NCBI GenBank assembly: GCA_965261735.1
Contig: OZ253470.1
Coordinates: 4,672,001-4,736,000 of the forward strand
Source: Alphaproteobacteria bacterium
GTDB lineage: Bacteria; Pseudomonadota; Alphaproteobacteria; SHVV01
Direction: 5' to 3'
Length of the DNA stretch: 64,000 nt
Shown: in pieces, positions 7,105 through 59,437 of the stretch
Layout of the letters: every line of letters begins with the position of its first letter
Numbering within the stretch: position 1 is the stretch's first letter
Notes under the pieces: generated by a model
The model's input: only the letters and a program-made list of their open reading frames with translations
Database searches by the model: none
Told to the model about the DNA's origin: nothing
Made by a program: the position numbers and the translations under genes

Positions 7105-7285
7105 TCTCGGGCTTCGTGCTAGGCTCGCTGGAGCCGAAGTGAGGGAAGCCGGTGGCGTCGTTCCGCGACCAGCCCGGCGCTGCCCCCGCAACTGTAAGTG
7201 GTGAGGTCTCGGCAACACAGCCACTGATGCTTTGGCATCGGGAAGGCGCCGGAACCGTTGACCCCGAGCCAGGAAACCTCGTCGG
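7105..7285 (+). ncRNA. Cobalamin (B12) riboswitch; boundaries approximate
   Basis: AGGGAA (7142), CCGGTG, CCGGCGCTGCCCCCGCAACTGT (7174-7195), GCCACTG (7220), GGGAAGGC (7240), B12 box GAGCCAGGAAACCT (7266-7279), directly upstream of cob genes. Confidence 0.93.
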
Positions 7286-35847: not shown

Positions 35848-36202
35848 GGTCACGCGTTCCTCTTGGCCCTGAACCACACTCAACAGCGGGCATAGCGGTA
35901 ACGAATGGCCCGCACGGCGCTTGCTCCGGCCAACCTACCATAATGCCCGATTCGCACCGAATCGTGAACCGTTTGGCGGCGTACCGCCGGTAGTGGAAGG
36001 CCCCCTCGACCGCACCGCAACCGGTAGGCTGCGGGTGTTGGCGTCATTATAGGAGGGTGCGCGCGGCCAATGAACAGGGAAAGCGCCGCCCGCCGCCCGA
36101 TGCCGGCATCACCCCTGAGAGCCGCGAATGAGCCTGAAATGGACAGGCAGCGCGCCGAGGACGTAATCTTGCGGCTCACCAGGCGCTGCAAGGGAGATGG
36201 GC

Positions 36203-36604
36203 ATGGCACGGCTTCGGCATATCGCGATCGTCGTTAGCGACAAGGAGAAAGCGGCCCAGTTCTACGAGCGCGTGTTCGAGATGAAGCGGGTTGGCGAAGA
36301 GGACGTGGGCGGCGGCAGCGCCATCTACCTGTCCGACGGCGTCATCAACCTAGCGCTCCTCAACTACAGATCCGACAAGATGGCCGGCATCAAGGACGCC
36401 AAGAACTTCATCGGCACCCACCATTTCGGCTTTCAGGTGGACGATCTCGCGGACTCGCAGGCGAAGATCGAGGCGGCTGGCGGCAGTTTCCACTTCGATC
36501 TCGGCGAAGACGACGAGAAGGTCAACTTCGAGAAGAAGTTTCGCGACCCCGACGGCATCATTTTCGATATTTCGAAGAGCGGCTGGGTCGGCACCGACGG
36601 CTGA
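36203..36604 (+). CDS. VOC/glyoxalase family protein
   Basis: LRHIAIVV, HHFGFQVDDL, DPDGIIFDIS. Confidence 0.85.
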   Translation: MARLRHIAIVVSDKEKAAQFYERVFEMKRVGEEDVGGGSAIYLSDGVINLALLNYRSDKMAGIKDAKNFIGTHHFGFQVDDLADSQAKIEAAGGSFHFDLGEDDEKVNFEKKFRDPDGIIFDISKSGWVGTDG

Positions 36605-36669
36605 AAGCGGACCACGACGATCCGACGCGGCCGCCCCCGGCCGGCGCGCCACCTACCTGCGGGTCGGTC

Positions 36670-37536
36670 TCAGAAGACCGACTTCTCGCTCTTCAGGAAG
36701 TGCCACGGTATCACCCACCGCTCGATAAACGTGACCGCGAGGAACAGCGTCACCGCGATCGTCGCGAGATAGAAGATCGCGGCGAAGGTCTCGGCGGTCT
36801 TGAACGCCGCGTTGGCGGCGATGATGACCGGACCCAGCCCCTCGTGGGCGCCCACCCATTCGCCGACGATGGCGCCGATGGGAGCGATCGTCGCGGAGAT
36901 CTTGAGGCCGGTGAAAATGTAGGGGGCCGAGCCGGGGAAGCGAACCTTCCAGAAGATTTGCCATTTGCTCGCGCCGAGCGAATCCATGAGGCTGATGGTG
37001 TCGCGATCGATCGAGACGAGGCCGGCGAAGACGTTCACGAACACCGGGAAGAAGACGATGATCGCCGCAACGATCACCTTGGGCGCCATGCCGAATCCGA
37101 ACCAGATAATCAGAATCGGTGCGATCGCAATGGTCGGGATGGCTTGTGTGCTGATGATCAGCGGCAGGATGGCCTGGCGCAGCGTGCGCGAGTGAAATAC
37201 GGCGGTGCCGAGAACGAATCCGATTCCGGCGCCGTAGCTGAAGCCAAGGATGATTTCCTGCAGTGTCACCCAGGCGTTGGGCAAGAACTTGTCGAGCGCG
37301 CGGTCATAGGCCGCGTACAGGATCTGATGAAGGGGCGGCAATATGTAGTCCGGCTGGTTGAACCAAACGTTGAAGTTTTCCCAGACGAAAACGATCAGCG
37401 CGACGGCGATCATCGCGGGTACAGCTGAACGCAGCCGCTCGGCGAGCGGTCTGCGCGGCGGGCCGCTGCGCGCCGGCGGGCCGGCCGGGCCTGCCGCCGT
37501 CTCTATTTCGCGGTCCAATCGCGCAGTCTGCGTCAT
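36670..37536 (-). CDS. NitT/TauT-type ABC permease (ThiX/SsuC-like)
   Basis: QAIPTIAIAP, WFGFG, FFPV, GAIVGEW. Confidence 0.9.
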   Translation of the reverse strand: MTQTARLDREIETAAGPAGPPARSGPPRRPLAERLRSAVPAMIAVALIVFVWENFNVWFNQPDYILPPLHQILYAAYDRALDKFLPNAWVTLQEIILGFSYGAGIGFVLGTAVFHSRTLRQAILPLIISTQAIPTIAIAPILIIWFGFGMAPKVIVAAIIVFFPVFVNVFAGLVSIDRDTISLMDSLGASKWQIFWKVRFPGSAPYIFTGLKISATIAPIGAIVGEWVGAHEGLGPVIIAANAAFKTAETFAAIFYLATIAVTLFLAVTFIERWVIPWHFLKSEKSVF

Positions 37537-37660
37537 TCGTCCGCCACCCTACGGCGCCCGATCAAGGCGTCAACATGGCCGTCGCGCCGCCGCCGCCCCG
37601 GGGAGGACGATTGCCGACCCTGAGGGGAGCGAGCCCACGAAGGTTGAGCGCGCGGCCACC

Positions 37661-38683
37661 TTATGGCAGGTACTCGTTGGTGAAATACGTGGTTGCCGCG
37701 GCCGGTACGGTAATCAGCTTTTCCTGGACCGCCCAATCGAGCGATTCCTGCCAGATCGCCACGTCCTGGACGAGCATCTTGCCGTCGGCGGTGAACCAGT
37801 CACCCTTCGCGCCCTCGGCGATCTTGGTATGCTGGGCCAGCGTAAAAATCTCGTTGCCCTTGGCGATGACCTCGTTGGTTGGCCCGGGATTGGCGAAGAA
37901 GTCGCGCGCGCCCTTTTCCGTCGCCCGCAGGAAGCGACAGGTCGCGGCGGCGTTCTTCCTGACCCAGTTCTCGTTGCCAACGAGGACCTGGTAGTAGAAG
38001 GCGGGGACGCCGAAGTCGCGGTAGAGCAGCCAACGCACGGGGCCCTTGCCCTGTCCTGCCAACACCTCGTCGGCGACGATGCCCTCGCCGTACGTGATGC
38101 CGTGGGCGGCGTCGACCTTGTCCTCGACGATGAGGGCGACATGGGCGAAGCCCGGGTCGATGACCTTGACATCGTCGACGGTCAGGCCGCCCGACTTGAG
38201 GACGCTGCGCAAAAACGCCTGGGCATCGAGCTTGGGTCCGACGCCCAGCGTCATGCCCTTGAGATCGGCCGCCGACTGAATCGCCTTATCGCCCTTGAAG
38301 AACAGGCCCGACGAGATAACCCGCAACATCGCGGCGACCGAAATCACCGGAATGCCGGTATCGCGGGAGATCATGACCTCGGGCACGTAGGTCATGCTGA
38401 ACTGTACGCGCTCGCGCGCCACCAGCTTGATCGGGTCGGCCGGGTTGGCCGGCGAGATGACGTTAACCTCGAGCCCCTCGGCCTTGTAGAAGCCGTTGTT
38501 GATAGCCGAGAAAAACGGGCCCTGGACCGCCCACGGGAGCCAGTCCGCCATGACCGTGATCTTGGTTGTCTCGGCGGGCGAATCGCAGGGTCCCGCCAAG
38601 GCGTCGCGGGCCGGCACGCTAGTTGCGATCAGCGCAGCGGCGAGTGCCGCGGCGCCAAGTGTCCGAAATGAAATGTCAATCAC
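37661..38683 (-). CDS. NMT1/THI5-like ABC substrate-binding protein (ThiY-like)
   Basis: Signal peptide, DWLP, GFYKAEGLEV, ADPIKLVA, FTNEYLP. Confidence 0.85.
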   Translation of the reverse strand: MIDISFRTLGAAALAAALIATSVPARDALAGPCDSPAETTKITVMADWLPWAVQGPFFSAINNGFYKAEGLEVNVISPANPADPIKLVARERVQFSMTYVPEVMISRDTGIPVISVAAMLRVISSGLFFKGDKAIQSAADLKGMTLGVGPKLDAQAFLRSVLKSGGLTVDDVKVIDPGFAHVALIVEDKVDAAHGITYGEGIVADEVLAGQGKGPVRWLLYRDFGVPAFYYQVLVGNENWVRKNAAATCRFLRATEKGARDFFANPGPTNEVIAKGNEIFTLAQHTKIAEGAKGDWFTADGKMLVQDVAIWQESLDWAVQEKLITVPAAATTYFTNEYLP

Positions 38684-38723
38684 CTTACTCCTCCCTCTCC
38701 TCTAGTTGCCTTCAATACCAGGG

Positions 38724-39524
38724 CTAAACAGCCGCAAAGCCCGGGCTCGCGGCCTTCACGCTTTCATCGTAAATCTGATCGAGCACGATTTTTTTCAGCT
38801 CGTTGAACCGCGCCGAGGTCAGCATGGTGTGGTCCCGCGGCCGATCCAGGTCGATGACCAGCTCGCCCTTGATGCGCCCCGGACGCGCCGACATCATCAG
38901 CACCCGATCGGACAGGAACACCGCCTCCTCGATGTCGTGGGTGATGAAGATGATCGTACGGTGGTCCTTCTCCCAGATGCTAAGCAGCCACTCCTGCATG
39001 ACCGAGCGGGTGAGCGCATCGAGCGCGCCGAACGGCTCGTCGAGCAGCAGGATGCTGCGGTCGCACAGCAGCGTGCGCATAAGGGCGGCGCGCTGGCGCA
39101 TGCCACCGGAAAGCTGGCTCGGATAGTTGTCGGCGAAGCCGCCGAGTCCGAATTCATCGAGGATCCGCTGTGCGCGCTCCTGCGCCTCTTTGCGCTTGGT
39201 GCCCAGCACCTCGATGCCGAGCGCCACGTTCTCTCGGATGTTGCGCCAGGGGAACAGCAGATCCTTCTGGAACATGTAGCTGAAATGTTCGTGCCGGACC
39301 GCGACCTCACTACCGTCGATCAGGATGTGTCCCGAGGTCGGCTCGAGCAGGCCGGCGATGATGTTGAGCAAGGTCGTCTTGCCGCAACCGCTGGGCCCGA
39401 CAATGGTGAGAAACTCCTTGGCCCGGACCGACAGGTCGGTGGACTCGACGGCCACGACGTCGAGCCCGTCGCCCTGCGGCGGAAACACCTTGTGGATGCC
39501 GACCAGCGTGACCTTGTCGTTCAC
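38724..39524 (-). CDS. NitT/TauT-type ABC ATP-binding protein
   Basis: GPSGCGKT, LSGGMRQR, LLDEPFGALD, THDIEEA. Confidence 0.93.
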   Translation of the reverse strand: MNDKVTLVGIHKVFPPQGDGLDVVAVESTDLSVRAKEFLTIVGPSGCGKTTLLNIIAGLLEPTSGHILIDGSEVAVRHEHFSYMFQKDLLFPWRNIRENVALGIEVLGTKRKEAQERAQRILDEFGLGGFADNYPSQLSGGMRQRAALMRTLLCDRSILLLDEPFGALDALTRSVMQEWLLSIWEKDHRTIIFITHDIEEAVFLSDRVLMMSARPGRIKGELVIDLDRPRDHTMLTSARFNELKKIVLDQIYDESVKAASPGFAAV

Positions 39525-39636
39525 CGGCGGCGCCCCCCGTCCGCGCTCGCACGGCCCCGGAGGTGCATGGGGCGCTCGTTACCTACAGTTGTCACCGTGT
39601 CCCCCCGCAAATGCAGCGCTCGCCTACCGACGACGC

Positions 39637-40410
39637 TTAGGCGGCCTTTTTGTGCTGTGGCCAGAACGCCTGCGGAAGGTCGAGATCGGCGGCCTTGAAC
39701 ACGCCGTCCCAGCATTCCCACAGCCGGTCACGAACGAACCTGGCGTTGCCGTAGAAGCGCCGCCGCTGTAGCGGCGTATGGGCGTAGGCGCGGATCAGCT
39801 TCCTGCCCTCCGCCGCGTGCTCCATATCGCCCTCGATGTGGACGATGAAGATGTCGAGGTCGCGGTTCGTGAAGCCGAAGTGCTTCTTGAGCGGTGGCAC
39901 CAGGCGGATGTAGAAATCCGGCAGCATCGCTTCGCCGCCGACCATGCCGGCGGCCATCGCCAGCGCCGGCTCGTCGTGGATGCCGAAATGCACGATGTCC
40001 TCCATCGCGTCGCCGAGCTGGGGGTGGGGGCGCAGCCGTCCCTCGCGGTTCGCCGCCTCGATCTCGCCCCTGTCGTACCCACACGCCTCGGCAAACTCGA
40101 TCGCCAATACGTAGTGCGCGGCGTGACCACAACGCTCCTCGGTCTCTTCGTCGATGAGGTTCTCCATGATGGCGGTACGGGCGCCGAGATCCATGTTGTG
40201 CATCAGGCACGATCCGATGTTACGCACGCTATGGTTGTAGTAGTACATCATCTGATAGCAGATCTTGTTGATCTGATCGCGGGCAACCTCGCCCCGCACC
40301 AGGCGGTCGAGAAACGGGTGGTCGGCGAGCCGGCGCTGCTCGATCATGCCGGTGATCGTATCGACGAACTCATCGGGCTTCATCTCGCGGGTGACATCGA
40401 TGCCATCCAT
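39637..40410 (-). CDS. Heme-oxygenase-like diiron protein (CADD/PqqC/TenA fold) with an intact metal-ligand set
   Basis: DHPF, ENLIDEE...H, GGEAMLP, HIEGDMEH (HxxxDxxH). Confidence 0.78.
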   Translation of the reverse strand: MDGIDVTREMKPDEFVDTITGMIEQRRLADHPFLDRLVRGEVARDQINKICYQMMYYYNHSVRNIGSCLMHNMDLGARTAIMENLIDEETEERCGHAAHYVLAIEFAEACGYDRGEIEAANREGRLRPHPQLGDAMEDIVHFGIHDEPALAMAAGMVGGEAMLPDFYIRLVPPLKKHFGFTNRDLDIFIVHIEGDMEHAAEGRKLIRAYAHTPLQRRRFYGNARFVRDRLWECWDGVFKAADLDLPQAFWPQHKKAA

Positions 40411-40527
40411 GGTTGGCTCTCCCGGCTCTCTTCGGCGCCGCTCACATCGCGGCGTCGGTCTCTATCAGGTCGCTACGGTATTCCACGGGACGCGACCCTG
40501 CAACAGCCGGCGAAACTGGCGAAAGGT

Positions 40528-41235
40528 CTAGGCGGCGCGCGTGCCCTGCGCACCAACGAACAGCGAATCCCAGCATGCGTACCATTCATCGCGCAGCCGC
40601 TCGGTGTAGTACACCAGGCGCAGCCGATCGAACGTGTCGCGGCAGTGCTGGAGCGCGTGGTCGACGTCGGACGGAGCGAATAGCGCCGGCGCCTTAAAGA
40701 CGCGAAGCGCGCTCTCGGGAACCCCGTAGTGGGTCCTGAACGCCTTGGCCAGGGCACGGTTGAGGCCCTTCATCTGGGACTCGACCGCGGCGCAGGCGCC
40801 TAGCGTGACCCAGTACACGGGCCGTTCCATTGTCGCGATGACCTCGCCAAAACGGTCTTCCAGCGTCGACGAAAGAGCTGCGGCCCGGGCCGCCTTGGCC
40901 GACACGCCGAGCGCCCGCGCCAGCTCCCGCGCCAGCGCCGCATGCGCGCCCTCGCCGATGCGCAAGCTGGTGCCGTCGCCGAGCTTGATCGGGGTCAGCA
41001 TTTTGTCGACGAAGAGGCGGCGGATCGTGTAGTCGGCGCTGTTCATGTACATCGGGCCGTAGAGCTCGATGACGTTGTCGTAATAGGGGATGAGCTGCGT
41101 CGCGACATCGCGCACCTGCCGCTTCGATGCGCGACCGGTCCGGAACTGCGCCTTGAACCACGGATGATCGACGATGCGGCGTTGGAGCGCGGTGCCGTAC
41201 AACGTCTCGGCATTCACGACCGGTTCGGCGCTCAT
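40528..41235 (-). CDS. Divergent CADD/PqqC/TenA-fold protein lacking most diiron ligands
   Basis: DHPWF, HAALARELARALG, VESQM, ACWD are colinear with the neighbour; EE and HxxxDxxH are absent. Confidence 0.65.
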   Translation of the reverse strand: MSAEPVVNAETLYGTALQRRIVDHPWFKAQFRTGRASKRQVRDVATQLIPYYDNVIELYGPMYMNSADYTIRRLFVDKMLTPIKLGDGTSLRIGEGAHAALARELARALGVSAKAARAAALSSTLEDRFGEVIATMERPVYWVTLGACAAVESQMKGLNRALAKAFRTHYGVPESALRVFKAPALFAPSDVDHALQHCRDTFDRLRLVYYTERLRDEWYACWDSLFVGAQGTRAA

Positions 41236-41453
41236 CGATTCTCTCTCTCGGAGGATAACTTGGTGTCCAGGTATAGGAATCGCCTAGGCGAGTCAAGCCG
41301 GGGCCAACGCCGCATCGGGCGGGGGTGATGTAGCCTGGCCGAGGCCCGAAAACGGCCACCCGGGCGCGCCTTGCCGGGCCTGCCGCCATCCGTTATGGTG
41401 CGCGCCGCCGCACAGACATCACAATAATACGTCCCTGGGGAGGAGCCCTGAAC

Positions 41454-42305
41454 ATGCGTTTCGCCACACTCGTCGGTCCCGACCGCCAGTCCTATTTCGT
41501 GCGCGTCAAGGATGGGGTCGCGACTCCCATCGGCCGTGCCTATGAGCGGCCCGGTGCCGACCCGCTGCGCGACCTCCTCGAGGCCCGCAAGAGCCCGGCC
41601 CGCGCGCCGGCCATCGCCGATCCCTTTCCCGCCGGCCGCGCCCGCCACCACCCGGCGGTCACCGCGCCGTCGAAGATCGTCGCCATTGGCCTCAACTACC
41701 GCAAGCACGCCAAGGAGACGAACAATCCTCTTCCCAAGGCGCCAATGTCGTGGTGCAAGTACACGAGCAGCCTGCTCGGCCACAACCGGCCGATTCGCTA
41801 CCGGCGCAAGGATTCGACCAAGATCGATTACGAGACCGAGCTCGCGTTCGTCTTTGGGAGTCGCGCGCGCGACGTCAAGAAGTCCAAGGCCCTCGATTAT
41901 GTCTTCGGCTACACCATGTGCAACGACGTCACCGCGCGCGACCACCAGTTTGCGGAGGGGCAGTTCGCGCGTAGCAAAAGCTTCGACACCTTCTCGCCGC
42001 TGGGACCCGTGATCGTCACCGCGGACGAGATTCCCGATCCACAAGCCATCACCATCCGCACCCGGCTCAACGGCAAGGTGATGCAGGAGGAGACGACCGG
42101 CGACATGGTGTTCTCGTGCGCCGAGCTCATCGAGTACCTGTCGCGCTTCTTCACCTTCGAGCCGGGCGACGTGGTCAGCACGGGCACGCCGTCCGGTGTG
42201 GGCGTCGCCCGCAAGCCGCCGGTGTTTATGAAGAACGGCGATATCGTCGAGGTCGAGGGCGACAAGATCGGCACCCTGCGCAACCCCGTCCAGGTCTACA
42301 AGTAG
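41454..42305 (+). CDS. Fumarylacetoacetate hydrolase family protein
   Basis: IGLNY, DYETEL, NDVTARD, KSFDTF, TGTPSGVG. Confidence 0.92.
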   Translation: MRFATLVGPDRQSYFVRVKDGVATPIGRAYERPGADPLRDLLEARKSPARAPAIADPFPAGRARHHPAVTAPSKIVAIGLNYRKHAKETNNPLPKAPMSWCKYTSSLLGHNRPIRYRRKDSTKIDYETELAFVFGSRARDVKKSKALDYVFGYTMCNDVTARDHQFAEGQFARSKSFDTFSPLGPVIVTADEIPDPQAITIRTRLNGKVMQEETTGDMVFSCAELIEYLSRFFTFEPGDVVSTGTPSGVGVARKPPVFMKNGDIVEVEGDKIGTLRNPVQVYK

Positions 42306-42354
42306 CGCGGGACGAGCCGGCGCTGGCCCGCCCAACCTCACGGGCGGCCGAGCC

Positions 42355-43194
42355 TCAGCCCGCCTTGGTCCGGCGCGCGCGGCCCGAGCGTCCGGCGCGC
42401 CCGTGGTGCACGATCTCGGGGCCCATGAAGCCGAGGGCGGCGCCGCCGTCGATGGGAATCAACACGCCCGTCATCCAGGACGACTTCTCGGAGGCGAGGA
42501 ACGAGACCAGCTCCGAGACGTCGTCGGGCTCACCCGTCCGCCCCAGCGGATACCTTGAGTTGCGCTGCTTGAGGTCGGCCTCGTAGTCCTTGCGCGACAC
42601 GCCTTCCGGGAAATAGATCTCGCTGCGCACCAGGGCCGGGCTGATGATGTTGACGCGGACGCCGAAGGGGCCGAGCTCCAGTGCTAACGATTTCGAGAAG
42701 GCATCGATGCCGCCTTTTGAAGTCGCATAGACCATGTGCCCGAAGCCGGGGCGGTAGGACAGGCTCGACGAGATGTTGATGATCGAGCCTTTGGTCTTCT
42801 TCAGCGCCGGGATGCACGCGAGCGAGAAGTTCATCGTGCCGTAGAGGTTGATGCCCATCGTGTAGGCGATGGCTTCTTGCGTGACCTTGTCATAGGTCTG
42901 GCGGCGCACGACGCCGGCGTTGTTGACCAGCACGTCGATGCGGCCGAAGTCGGCGAGGACACTCTTGACCGTCTGCTTGACCTGCTTTAGGTCGGCGATG
43001 TCGCATACGTAGGGGTGGAGCTTCTCGCCGCGGCGCGGCTTGAGGCGGCCTGCGCGGCGGCCGATCACGGCGACCGTGAAGCCGTCGTCGACGAGCGTGT
43101 TGGCGGCGTCACGCCCGAGGCCGGTGCCACCGCCGGTGACGATCGCAACCCTCTTTGCGTTGGGGCGTCTCTTTGTTGTCGCCGTTCTCGCCAT
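42355..43194 (-). CDS. SDR oxidoreductase with basic terminal extensions
   Basis: TGGGTGLG, NNAG, YATSK, IDGG. Confidence 0.9.
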   Translation of the reverse strand: MARTATTKRRPNAKRVAIVTGGGTGLGRDAANTLVDDGFTVAVIGRRAGRLKPRRGEKLHPYVCDIADLKQVKQTVKSVLADFGRIDVLVNNAGVVRRQTYDKVTQEAIAYTMGINLYGTMNFSLACIPALKKTKGSIINISSSLSYRPGFGHMVYATSKGGIDAFSKSLALELGPFGVRVNIISPALVRSEIYFPEGVSRKDYEADLKQRNSRYPLGRTGEPDDVSELVSFLASEKSSWMTGVLIPIDGGAALGFMGPEIVHHGRAGRSGRARRTKAG

Positions 43195-43205
43195 GGTTCC
43201 TCCCC

Positions 43206-44191
43206 TTAGCTGTCGAGCGTTTCCATCATCGCCTGCGGATAGCGTGGTCCCGAGGCCGCGCCGGGCGGCAATGCCCGGTCGAGCTCGGCGAGCTCGTCGC
43301 CCGACAGGGTGAGGTCGAGGGCGGCCACGTTCTCTTCGAGATAGGCGCGCCGCTGCGTCCCCGGGATCGGAATCACGTGATCGTCGCAGTGCACGACCCA
43401 GGCGAGCGCGAGCTGCGCCGGCGTGCACCCTTGTTCCCGGCGATGTCGGCGATGGCGCGGACGAGTTCGAGGTTGCGGGTGAAATTCTCGCCTTGAAAGC
43501 GCGGATGGTTGTGGCGCCGGTCGCTCTCGGGGAGCGCGCCCACGTCCTTGACGCTGCCCGCCAGCATGCCGCGCCCGAGTGGGCTGTAGGCGACGAAGGC
43601 GACGCCGAGGGCGCGGCTCGCGGCGAGCGAACCCGACTGATTGTCGCGGCTCCACAGCGACAGCTCGCTCTGCAGGGCAGCGATCGGGCATACGGCCATC
43701 GCGCGTTCGAGCGTCGCTCCGGAGGCCTCGGAGAGGCCGACATAGCGGACCTTCCCGGCCTCGCGCAGCTTCGCCATGGCGCCCATGGAGTCCTCGATCG
43801 GGACGTTGGGATCGACCCGGTGCAGGTAGTAAAGGTCGATGGTCTCAACGCCGAGGCGTTTGAGACTGGCGTCGCACGCTTGGAGGATGTAATCGGGGCG
43901 GCCGTCGAGGGACAGGCCTTGGGCGCCGAACTTGTTGCCGCATTTGGTGGCGAGGAAGACGCCCTCGCGCCGGCCCCGGATGGCGCGGCCAACGAATTCC
44001 TCGTTCTCGCCATTGCCGTAGACATCGGCAGTGTCGAGAAAGGTGACGCCAAGCTCCAGCGCGCGCTCGATAGTGGCGCGGGCCTCGCCGTCGTCGCGCA
44101 CGCCGTACCAGCCGGCCATGCCCATGCAGCCGAGGCCGAGCGCGGAGACGAGCGGGCCGCCGCGGCCGAGCTCGCGTGTCTTCATATCCAC
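43206..44191 (-). pseudogene. Aldo/keto reductase, frameshifted (real pseudogene or sequencing error)
   Basis: GLGCMGM...YSPLGRG in one frame and TPAQLALAW...IPGT in another; one base missing at the CCC run 43428-43430. Confidence 0.8.
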
Positions 44192-44210: not shown

Positions 44211-45197
44211 CTAAAGGTTGAGGCGGCCCATCATCGCCTCGGGGTAGCGCTCGCCGGCGGGCGCGCTCGGCGGCACTGCCGTATCGAGGCGGGCGAGCTC
44301 AGCCTCGGTGAGGACGATGTCGGCTGCAGCGAGATTTTCCTCGAGGTAAGTGCGCCGCTGCGTCCCCGGTATGGGCACGATGTCCTCGCCCTTGTTCAAT
44401 ACCCAGGCGAGCGCGATCTGGGCTGGCGTCACGTTGCGCTCGGCGGCGAGCGCCGCCACCTCGCCGAGCAGATCGAGGTTGCGCTCCATGTTGCCTTCCT
44501 GGAAGCGCGGGAAGCGCCGGCGTACGTCGCCCGCCGCGAGGTCGTCGATCTTGTGGATGACACCGGACAGGAGGCCCCGGCCGAGCGGGCTGTAGGCCAC
44601 GAAACCGATGCCGAGCTCGCGGCACACATCCAGGTGCCCTATTTCGGGCTCTCTGGCGAGTAATGAGTACTCGGTCTGCAGCGCGGTGATCGGATGCACG
44701 CCGTGGGCGCGGCGGATGGTCTCGGGCGCCGCCTCGGAGAGGCCGATGTGTCGCACCTTGCCCGCCTCCACGAGCCGCGCCATGGCCCCGACCGTATCCT
44801 CGATCGGGCAATTGGAGTCGACGCGGTGGAGATAGTAGAGGTCGATGACGTCGGTGCCGAGGCGGCTCAGGCTGCCCTCGCACGCCTTCGCCGCGTAGGC
44901 GGGGCTGCCATCGACGTCGACCGAGGCACCGGAGTCGTTCCACACGTGCCCGAACTTGGTCGCCAGGAACACCCGATCGCGGCGCCCGCGCAGCGCCTCG
45001 CCGACGAAACGCTCGTTGTCGCCGGCGCCATAGACGTCGGCCGTATCGAGGAAGTCGACGCCGAGCTCGAAGGCGCGTTCGAGCGTGGCACGAGCCTCGC
45101 CGTCGTCGCGCACCCCGTACCATCCGGCCATGCCCATGCAGCCGAGGCCCAGGGCCGAGACCTCGGGGCCGTCGCGCCCGAGCTTGCGTCTTTGCAT
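44211..45197 (-). CDS. Aldo/keto reductase
   Basis: [32 protein letters not shown]. Confidence 0.93.
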
Positions 45198-45377
45198 GAT
45201 CCCCCCCTTTCGTTGGCGGCTGAGTGTGCCCGCTCGCCGCCACCGGCGCAAGCCGCCGGGCGCATTGCACGCCTCCCAGGTTTGTTTTATAACCGCGTGA
45301 GGGCGGCTCGATAATGCGCGATTTTTCAATGCGTTATGAGACTCGCGCCGCCACGAAACACAGAGCCGGAGAGCACC

Positions 45378-58336: not shown

Positions 58337-59437
58337 TGCCTATCCGGTTAACACCCATGACCGCTACATGTAGGGTGCCGCCACTCTCCCGAGTAAAGCT
58401 CGGCATAGGTTGGAGCAGAGGTGTCGCCCGCGATGCCGAGCAATGAGCGGAAGGCGTTGAACGGGTAGAACCGCCTGTTGAAGCGGAAGGTGAACTCGTT
58501 GAGGTAGGCTTGTAGGTGCTGGTGGCTAACGCCGTGGTGGATACCGATCAGCCACGTCTTCAGGTTGGCGAAAACCAGATGGATGATCGGCAGGTATTGC
58601 TCGGCAACCTCTGGATCACCACACTCGGCAACAGCGAAGTGCTCATAGCCGCGCTTACCGAGGCCAGCATAGCCGCTCCAATCGTCAGTAACGATCAGCG
58701 ATCGCGGCGCGACGGTGCTCTCGACGAACCCACAGAGCGACTCGGCGCTACGGTCGAGCACGACGGCGAGCCGAACGCGTCCGGCATAGCGTCCGTCTTT
58801 CCGGTTGTCGAGCTTGGTGCCCGGCTTTCGATGACGCACCTCGATGGCACAGGAGACGGGAACCTTGTGGTGAACACCACGGCCTTCCCCACGCGTTCGC
58901 CCGCCAACCCAGGTTTCGTCCACCTCAACATGGTTCTTGGGCTGTCCACCGATCCTGTCTTGGTTGGGCCGCACCATGCCCGAGCGGAGCTTGTGGAGAA
59001 TTTGAAAGGCCGTCTCGTAGCGCGAAAGACCAAGTTGCCGCTGAAACTGCACGGCGGACATGCCGGGCGTCTGACTGGCGACCAGATAAGCGGCCCAGAA
59101 CCAGACGTTCAGCGGAGTGTGGCTACGCTCCATCACTGTTCCCACCGTCAGCCCGGTGTTCTGGCGGCACTTGCGGCAGCGCAGGACGCCAGGGCGGTTT
59201 TCAAAGTGGAACGGCTCTCCCGCCGTGCCGCAGTGCGGGCAGGCAAAGCCGTCTCCCCAGCGGGCTTTCTCCAGGTAGGCGGCGCAGGCCGCATCATCGG
59301 GGAAAAGTCGCTGGAACTCGGGTAGCGAATGCGGGAATGGGAGATCGGCGCGGTCGAGAACATCCATGGCGCGCTCCCCTATATCCGGTTTGCGCCTATT
59401 CTAGCCCTAGTGGGTGTGGGTGTAAACCGGATAGGCA
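58337..59437. mobile_element. IS1595-family insertion sequence
   Basis: Terminal inverted repeats TGCCTATCCGGTTAACACCCA / TGGGTGTAAACCGGATAGGCA (1 mismatch; the match extends 5 bp further out) around a transposase. Confidence 0.9.
58348..59367 (-). CDS. IS1595-family transposase
   Basis: Zn ribbon CPHC...CRKC, VEVDET, IVTDDW, YLNEFTFRFN. Confidence 0.93.
   Translation of the reverse strand: MDVLDRADLPFPHSLPEFQRLFPDDAACAAYLEKARWGDGFACPHCGTAGEPFHFENRPGVLRCRKCRQNTGLTVGTVMERSHTPLNVWFWAAYLVASQTPGMSAVQFQRQLGLSRYETAFQILHKLRSGMVRPNQDRIGGQPKNHVEVDETWVGGRTRGEGRGVHHKVPVSCAIEVRHRKPGTKLDNRKDGRYAGRVRLAVVLDRSAESLCGFVESTVAPRSLIVTDDWSGYAGLGKRGYEHFAVAECGDPEVAEQYLPIIHLVFANLKTWLIGIHHGVSHQHLQAYLNEFTFRFNRRFYPFNAFRSLLGIAGDTSAPTYAELYSGEWRHPTCSGHGC

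Follow-up and report, generated by a model that had tools for sequence, protein, structure and literature searches.

A heme-oxygenase-like protein with a complete dimetal ligand set and its ligand-poor paralogue, encoded ahead of an ABC importer in Alphaproteobacteria and Acidimicrobiia

Why should a bacterium encode two related heme-oxygenase-like proteins, only one of which carries a complete set of metal ligands, directly ahead of an importer? The question is raised by a unit on the minus strand (36670-41235) of a 64,000-nucleotide stretch of an alphaproteobacterial genome (contig OZ253470.1, positions 4,672,001 to 4,736,000), hereafter called the window. According to the open reading frame (ORF) list the unit consists of five colinear ORFs with spacers of 40-124 nt, in the order HDO-B, HDO-A, and the ATPase, binding protein and permease of an ATP-binding cassette (ABC) transporter (Table 1). 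An original prediction, made by reading the sequence without database searches, had proposed two colinear heme-oxygenase-like genes ahead of an ATPase, a substrate-binding protein and a permease, and both the order of the ORFs and Pfam matches for all five products agree with it. We favor, with a probability of about one half, the reading that HDO-A is a catalytic, dimetal, O2-activating oxidase or oxygenase acting on an imported free small molecule, and that HDO-B is a ligand-poor partner subunit that binds HDO-A.

Ligand patterns and relationship of the two proteins

HDO-A matches PF14518 (Haem_oxygenas_2) at 50.3 bits, the cut-off being 28.9, and displays the motifs ENLIDEE (83-89), H99, E160 and H191-x3-D195-x2-H198 that the original prediction had already picked out. 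Six of these residues (E88, H99, E160, H191, D195 and H198) align with the ligand columns of CADD, and all six are invariant in 30/30 sequences of the A family. This family comprises 35 protein clusters in a collection of 5.8 billion proteins; the alignment holds 29 of them and the window protein, with the omission of P0001 (99% identical), P0003 and P0011 (from contigs of less than 1 kb), and the fragments P0031, P0034 and P0035. N84, D87, T90, R93, C94 and G95 are also invariant (30/30), and the family thereby has a distinctive stretch (I86-D-E-E-T90 followed by R93-C94-G95), in which a four-residue insertion relative to CADD (TEER) is placed after the EE pair and before the ligand His.

In a sequence search against solved structures HDO-A matched 4-aminobenzoate synthase/CT610 at E 3e-10 to 1e-9. 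The AlphaFold2 model is confident and all-helical, with a mean predicted local distance difference test score (pLDDT) of 86.5, and its only weak part is residues 81-100 (block means 56 and 60, values below 50 at 87-89), i.e. the stretch with E88, H99 and the insertion specific to the family. The best fold match identified by Foldseek is CtCADD (E 2.9e-7, template modelling (TM) score 0.73/0.86), and PqqC is next. HDO-A accordingly possesses the seven-helix heme-oxygenase-like fold as well as the 3-His/3-carboxylate primary ligand set by which we judged membership of the superfamily of heme-oxygenase-like oxidases and oxygenases with a dimetal site (HDOs).

HDO-B is a different case. It barely exceeds the PF14518 cut-off (29.5 bits), and it retains DHPW, H98, ESQ (152-154) and CWD but ENLIDEE is replaced by DKMLTPI and the first His of HxxxDxxH by F186, consistent with the scaffold (DHP, H, ESQ, CWD) that had been described as lacking the EE pair and that His. 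The B family comprises 19 clusters in the same collection; 18 of these (P0036 was omitted, being 99% identical), the window protein and three locus translations were aligned, and the ligand positions were mapped through A-B BLASTP and profile-profile alignments. The position of the first carboxylate, D87 in the window protein, is variable (D, N, V, Q, K), as is that of the last His (H, R, Y). H98, E152 and D190 are nearly invariant, H98 being Q in 2/22 sequences and D190 not being kept in two sequences from Acidimicrobiia, and none of the six dimetal ligand positions is invariant across the 22 B sequences. Because D87 and the last His vary, F186 occupies the place of the first His, and H98, E152 and D190 are only nearly invariant, we conclude from these alignments that HDO-B has no conserved dimetal site, and that it shares the fold of the HDO superfamily but not the 3-His/3-carboxylate set. 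To this extent the earlier description of the second protein as a pseudo-enzyme stands. Catalytic deadness, the other half of that description, is not established, since conserved residues of a possible pocket remain (see below).

The AlphaFold2 model of HDO-B is likewise all-helical (pLDDT 91.3), and its best folds in the PDB according to Foldseek are CtCADD (E 3e-7) and then PqqC; for both proteins these are followed by UndA, BesC, HrmI, PolF, HamA, TenA and heme oxygenase. HDO-A and HDO-B are 23% identical by BLASTP (E 5e-12), and a comparison of the two family profiles gives a probability of 99.6% (E 1.4e-24, 211 columns), which identifies them as paralogues. When the B profile was searched against 1.84 billion representatives it recovered 20 proteins at E ≤ 0.001, of which 5 were at ≤ 1e-10 and 2 at ≤ 1e-30, and the next-best matches include the A-family proteins P0029 and P0032 at about 1e-11. 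Since so few proteins are found, and A-family proteins come next, the B family is to be regarded on these matches as a rare and degenerate offshoot of the A lineage.

Conservation of the pair, predicted complex and importer linkage

When one genome per species was scanned with a degenerate pattern, 37 loci (L numbers below) were recovered, 14 of which encode an A protein at least 45% identical to HDO-A while the remaining 23 are distant (27-38%). B lies directly upstream of A in 9/14 close loci (L002-L006, L009, L011-L013). All five close loci without an adjacent B (L001, L007, L008, L010, L014) belong to the same assembly as L009, and the pair is therefore present in 9/9 assemblies. Conservation of the pair, part of a check that the original prediction had named, is thus found, and it spans two phyla, being seen in Alphaproteobacteria and Acidimicrobiia. 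In the distant loci B was found in 0/23, and none of the 11 that were scanned with Pfam has a second PF14518 neighbor. The surroundings of these distant solo genes are mixed, e.g. a cupin, a transporter of the MFS type and an AMP ligase in one context, a molybdenum (Mo) hydroxylase, a VanA-type Rieske protein and a LivK-type binding protein in another, and TctC in a third, and the neighbors provide no single clue to a substrate.

The multi-copy alphaproteobacterial assembly (L001, L007, L008, L009, L010 and L014) holds 11 A paralogues that are 42-91% identical to each other, and L009 displays five tandem A genes behind a single B. Transposase and integrase genes adjoin several of these copies. 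In L014 (8001-9534) the most divergent paralogue (45%) is directly followed by a true TenA gene (PF03070, 7.3e-50), and this A-TenA pair adjoins an Amidohydro_2 gene and a gene for an N,N-dimethylformamidase-like protein.

A structural model of the A-B complex scored 0.69, compared with 0.00 for the best of three controls. The mark applied is reached by 58/80 solved complexes and 2/110 mismatched pairs, counts that are only rough since custom alignments were used. Runs share at least 90% of their contacts and the pLDDT of the partner is at least 89. The model supports binding of the two proteins, although it does not show it. The predicted interface is pseudo-symmetric, formed by residues 59-72, 75-90 and 98-101 of A and the equivalent residues 53-80 and 92-96 of B; G66 of A faces G60 and M64 of B, and the surface on A overlaps part of the low-confidence segment that bears ligands. 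Conservation, a measure independent of the model, is concentrated there in HDO-B: 14 of the 28 residues in the predicted interface are invariant, compared with 23/207 elsewhere (Fisher p 4.7e-6). The two-subunit assembly previously suggested, still a prediction from a model, gains in plausibility from a pair conserved in two phyla and a complex model that passes its controls.

Among 270 candidates, searched with residues 60-240, no fused B-A or A-A protein was seen, which is weak evidence. One distant relative recovered with the B profile, P0065 (498 aa), is a tandem fusion of two heme-oxygenase-like domains with ENRVEEE...H and HxxxDxxH in both halves, and two-domain architectures of the fold therefore do occur as single chains.

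The link to uptake is conserved together with the pair. Importer genes lie directly downstream in 8/9 B-holding loci, and the ninth stops at a contig end. An orthologue of the ATPase (76-80% identity) directly follows HDO-A in L002-L006 and L009, NMT1-type binding proteins are found in L002 and L003, and an orthologue of the permease (65% identity) is present in L009. In both Acidimicrobiia loci (L011 and L012) the B-A pair is instead followed by a LivK-type binding protein, Liv-type permeases, two ATPases, a GntR/FCD regulator, a short-chain dehydrogenase/reductase (SDR) and an MFS protein. No other observation speaks as strongly for a functional uptake link as this exchange of the importer for one of an unrelated type. 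Divergent from the pair and upstream of it, both loci (L011 402-1418, L012 6168-7169) hold a gene for a Suc_Fer-like protein (thioredoxin-like ferredoxin), a possible electron donor for the oxidase.

What the importer carries can be narrowed down only loosely. The binding protein starts with a hydrophobic leader, as read from the translated sequence, and its best match among solved structures is 3ix1, a binding protein for N-formyl-4-amino-5-aminomethyl-2-methylpyrimidine (E 4.5e-34, residues 42-334), with THI5 enzymes ranking after it; the match points to homology with ThiY and not to specificity. NMT1-type binding proteins have also been tied to purine oxidation (PMC7373994). The ATPase falls below all NCBIfam equivalog cut-offs (the best are SaoA, 221.5 vs 360, and taurine ATPase, 220.6 vs 357). 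The names SaoA and SaoP, of a selenoprotein-linked transporter, were considered for the ATPase and the permease and dropped, as the scores are far under the cut-offs. Variable neighbors across the loci include Rieske oxygenases, Amidohydro_2 proteins, a xanthine-dehydrogenase-type Mo hydroxylase and a glutathione S-transferase. The likeness to ThiY, the Mo hydroxylase, Rieske and amidohydrolase neighbors and the LivK-type importer together loosely suggest a polar nitrogen-containing compound, either an N-heterocycle or an amino-acid-like molecule, which is our guess. The pyrimidine-like or other heterocyclic substrate of the original prediction is not established, given that its pointers are a ThiY-like binding protein and neighbors that vary, and that the Acidimicrobiia have a LivK-type importer.

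A working model and its alternatives

According to the favored reading HDO-A would be a cytoplasmic oxidase or oxygenase with an Fe/Fe or Fe/Mn site, and its target would be a free small molecule and not its own side chains. HDO-B, a degenerate A paralogue whose dimetal site was lost, would form a pseudo-symmetric heterodimer with A and pack on the segment bearing the first two ligands (E88 to H99), thereby stabilizing or gating the site. Its role would be that of a structural or activating partner and not of a second oxidase. Uptake of the substrate would fall to the ABC importer whose genes lie directly downstream, in which case the unit would serve uptake-linked breakdown or salvage rather than natural-product biosynthesis. 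The suggested role of HDO-B resembles that of Rnr4, the Rnr2 paralogue that lost its iron ligands and is needed for assembly or stability of the cofactor. Yeast Rnr2-Rnr4, and the effectors of ferritin-like diiron oxygenases, likewise combine a diiron subunit with a paralogue or redox-inactive partner that tunes the site, but they are built on a ferritin-like four-helix core without homology to the present proteins, so the analogy is one of working and not of membership.

Several observations weigh against this reading and should be kept in mind. H24, P25, W26, W142, Y209, R213, R215 and E217 of HDO-B are conserved outside the predicted interface, and from these residues HDO-B could build its own ligand pocket or active site. 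On the A side the enrichment of invariant residues in the interface is weak (9/31 vs 36/226 elsewhere, p 0.066). CADD and PqqC crystallise as dimers, and since such dimers of the fold have been solved, the pass of the complex model may partly reflect a generic dimer interface. A may also work alone, because 5/14 close loci are without an adjacent B and L009 has five A genes to one B. With regard to the pathway, the operon has no reductase or ferredoxin gene, and in L004-L006 the ATPase gene stands alone after the pair, with no adjacent binding protein or permease. Finally, genes for an aldo/keto reductase (AKR), the SDR and a FAH-family hydrolase, and VOC genes, recur as neighbors in alphaproteobacterial loci; since gltB recurs as well (in L005), part of this recurrence is attributable to shared gene order. 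The AKR-SDR-FAH genes travel with gltB in related alphaproteobacterial genomes, and their link to the unit may be of that kind.

Some of the same observations would fit a reading in which the two proteins are homodimeric enzymes that act separately in one pathway, A as a dimetal oxidase and B as a metal-free or mononuclear enzyme (like PqqC, TenA, FlcD or HamA) that performs the step before or after A. We consider this unlikely. The fold is known to have mononuclear as well as metal-free members (PMC13108848), structures of PqqC and TenA are among the fold matches of B, and besides the conserved aromatic and Arg residues off the interface B keeps the nearly invariant H98, E152 and D190; furthermore, a single B may accompany five A genes. 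However, H98 and D190 are not kept throughout (see above), in B invariant residues make up half of the predicted interface compared with 11% elsewhere, and the A-B complex model passes its controls. B was moreover seen only beside A in the loci covered, an observation that is biased because the loci were chosen through A.

The type of binding protein invites the further idea that the unit is a variant of thiamin-pyrimidine salvage, with a ThiXYZ-like importer for degraded thiamin pyrimidine and heme-oxygenase-like proteins that replace TenA in making hydroxymethylpyrimidine (HMP). In some Bacillus genomes tenA sits with thiXYZ, and in those clusters, as here, an NMT1/ThiY-type importer adjoins a gene for a protein of this fold; 3ix1 is the best solved relative of the binding protein, and a TenA gene directly follows the 45% identical A paralogue of L014. 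Against this stand a Rfam scan of 36000-42500 that gave zero matches even at E ≤ 1, so that no thiamin pyrophosphate (TPP) riboswitch, whose absence had been noted earlier by eye, and no HMP-PP or xanthine (NMT1-motif) riboswitch is present, and the scores with PF03070 (TenA), which for A is 19.5 against a cut-off of 22 and for B gives no match at E ≤ 0.1. A hydrolase would have no need of the invariant oxidase-type ligand set seen in A, 11 diverged A copies in one genome would be odd for a vitamin salvage step, the importer in Acidimicrobiia is LivK-type, and the binding-protein family is the one also linked to purine oxidation. We regard thiamin salvage as improbable.

It is far less probable still that A is a self-sacrificing p-aminobenzoate synthase of the CADD/PabS type, or PqqC, in spite of the fact that 4-aminobenzoate synthase/CtCADD and PqqC are the best sequence and fold matches and that some family members are labelled 'PQQ biosynthesis protein C' in the source annotation. 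CtCADD and NePabS share with A the seven-helix fold and the same six ligand positions, but identity is ~21-23%, and the nearest NCBIfam subfamily for both proteins, TIGR04305 (CADD/PabS), scores 65.7 bits with A and 32.3 with B against a cut-off of 200; TIGR02111 (PqqC) reaches 24.4 bits vs 240, and the BesC model of NCBIfam 19.7 vs 500. PMC9522330 places Tyr27 of CADD in the peptide HMLEHTFYVK and names Lys152 as a neighboring residue. In an alignment to the CtCADD chain 1rcw_A Tyr27 corresponds to L34 of HDO-A and the position of Lys152 (the bridging Glu + 10) to L170, and the A family has F or L at the former and L, I or M at the latter. A thus lacks the sacrificial Tyr and the neighboring Lys and has the TEER insertion, and the context differs in that a degenerate partner gene and an importer are present, and neither pqq nor folate genes came up in the Pfam scans of window proteins. 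The original prediction had anticipated Leu at both sacrificial positions, the lack of other pqq genes and, as a consequence, a protein distinct from CADD, PqqC and thiaminase II, and all of this is sustained by the missed curated cut-offs and the residues and genes absent.

The closest parallels in terms of chemistry would be UndA, BesC, HrmI, PolF, RohS and the SznF domain, which hold a dimetal site in the same fold and act, as would be expected here, on free small molecules; structures of such substrate-acting HDOs are among the fold matches of A at E 1e-4 to 1e-3. A 2026 review (PMC13108848) puts the number of validated HDOs at about a dozen, all of them biosynthetic, and states that none of those studied so far depends on a protein effector, in contrast to many diiron enzymes of the ferritin-like type. 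The present pair differs in having a conserved ligand-poor paralogue and an uptake context. No description of a pair of catalytic and ligand-poor HDOs was found in the open-access literature, judged in part by title and abstract. Open-access text on heme-oxygenase-like diiron heterodimers yielded only MbnBC, which is unrelated, and on heme-oxygenase-like pseudoenzymes nothing, while the look-alikes of A and B in the ESM Atlas are generic PF14518/PF03070 clusters only.

The claim of an undescribed system thus holds insofar that no such pair was found in that literature, and fails insofar that the pair is a variant inside a known superfamily and does not amount to a new type of system; what makes it interesting is the partner subunit together with the uptake context. 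If true, a conserved combination of catalytic and ligand-poor subunits would be a new way to control or assemble the notoriously labile HDO cofactor, and the importer link would extend the HDO superfamily into nutrient uptake and breakdown. One could go further and suggest, tentatively and with less confidence than the favored reading itself, that this is the first HDO to work as an obligate heterodimer with a ligand-deficient paralogue as built-in effector or assembly factor, stabilizing the ligand segment in the manner of Rnr4, and the first devoted to an imported nutrient, with one B in some genomes serving up to eleven A proteins with different substrates. Both families are very small and come from uncultured Alphaproteobacteria and Acidimicrobiia, and they could for that reason point to a niche defined by a specialised substrate. 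That substrate can be approached directly by experiment through the binding protein.

Neighboring genes and other features of the window

The coordinates of the unit and of the neighbors that may be associated with it are given in Table 1.

Table 1. Genes of the five-gene unit and selected neighbors (window coordinates)
Feature	Position	Strand	Length (aa)	Basis and remarks
HDO-B	40528-41235	-	235	Heme-oxygenase-like, dimetal ligand set not conserved; partner subunit of HDO-A (predicted)
HDO-A	39637-40410	-	257	Heme-oxygenase-like, complete 3-His/3-carboxylate set; presumed catalytic subunit
ABC transporter ATP-binding subunit	38724-39524	-	266	PF00005 ABC_tran, E 3.9e-35
Periplasmic substrate-binding protein, NMT1/THI5 family, ThiY-like	37661-38683	-	340	PF09084, E 2.5e-45
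ABC transporter permease	36670-37536	-	288	PF00528 BPD_transp_1, E 4.2e-32
FAH-family hydrolase	41454-42305	+		PF01557, E 8.4e-76; divergent from operon, possibly associated
VOC/glyoxalase-fold protein	36197-36604	+		PF00903, E 6.6e-16; single-domain, possibly associated
SDR oxidoreductase	42355-43176	-		PF13561, E 5.7e-51; syntenic neighbor

The closest solved relatives of the FAH-family hydrolase are HpaG (3.4e-58) and L-2,4-diketo-3-deoxyrhamnonate hydrolase (4.5e-52). Orthologues of it (62-75% identity) occur in the neighborhood of A copies in L002, L003, L004, L006, L008 and L009, so that in one genome the gene recurs next to A copies at two separate loci (L008 and L009), and none is present in the Acidimicrobiia loci. 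The copy in L008 (9819-10607, minus strand), beside two tandem A genes, is broken by a stop codon and is followed by an integrase gene. VOC homologues (50-60% identity) adjoin the ATPase gene in L004-L006, there as tandem domains, and SDR homologues (55-62% identity) hold the same relative place in L002, L006, L009 and L013. A sugar-acid route of the L-rhamnonate or L-fuconate type was considered for the AKR-SDR-FAH genes and set aside, as no dehydratase is present and the neighbors are possibly syntenic only.

A scan for promoters and terminators stayed at chance level (0 promoters vs 0.8 expected, 4 terminators vs 4.3), and an alignment of the B-A spacer over 9 loci revealed no conserved element, the mean column identity being 40%.

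The 565-aa ORF at 42355-44052 (minus strand) results from a spurious extension of the SDR gene in the upstream direction, over an AKR gene, the SDR domain beginning near 43176. The first of two tandem AKR genes (43206-44191, minus strand) appears frameshifted: the ORF at 43373-44191 covers only profile positions 2-237 of 291, and the missing C-terminus is read in another frame (ORF 43206-43691) and closely resembles that of the AKR at 44211-45203. This is either a pseudogene or a sequence error.

Elsewhere in the window there are a cobalamin cluster, gltBD, hydrolases and reductases, along with an ABC system of the sugar type. On the plus strand a cobalamin riboswitch at 7142-7279 (90.3 bits, E 5e-21), the sole Rfam match at the gathering threshold across the window, heads a large cluster for cobalamin biosynthesis and cobalt uptake (about 7258-28704) that includes CobU, CobW, CobN, CobD, CbiX, CbiC, CbiG, CbiD, CobQ, CbtA, CobS and CobT. 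The G+C content of this region is 0.70-0.73, compared with 0.62-0.68 in other parts of the window. An IS1595-family transposase gene at 58348-59367 (minus strand), immediately upstream of clpX and lon, has a lower G+C content at third codon positions (0.73).

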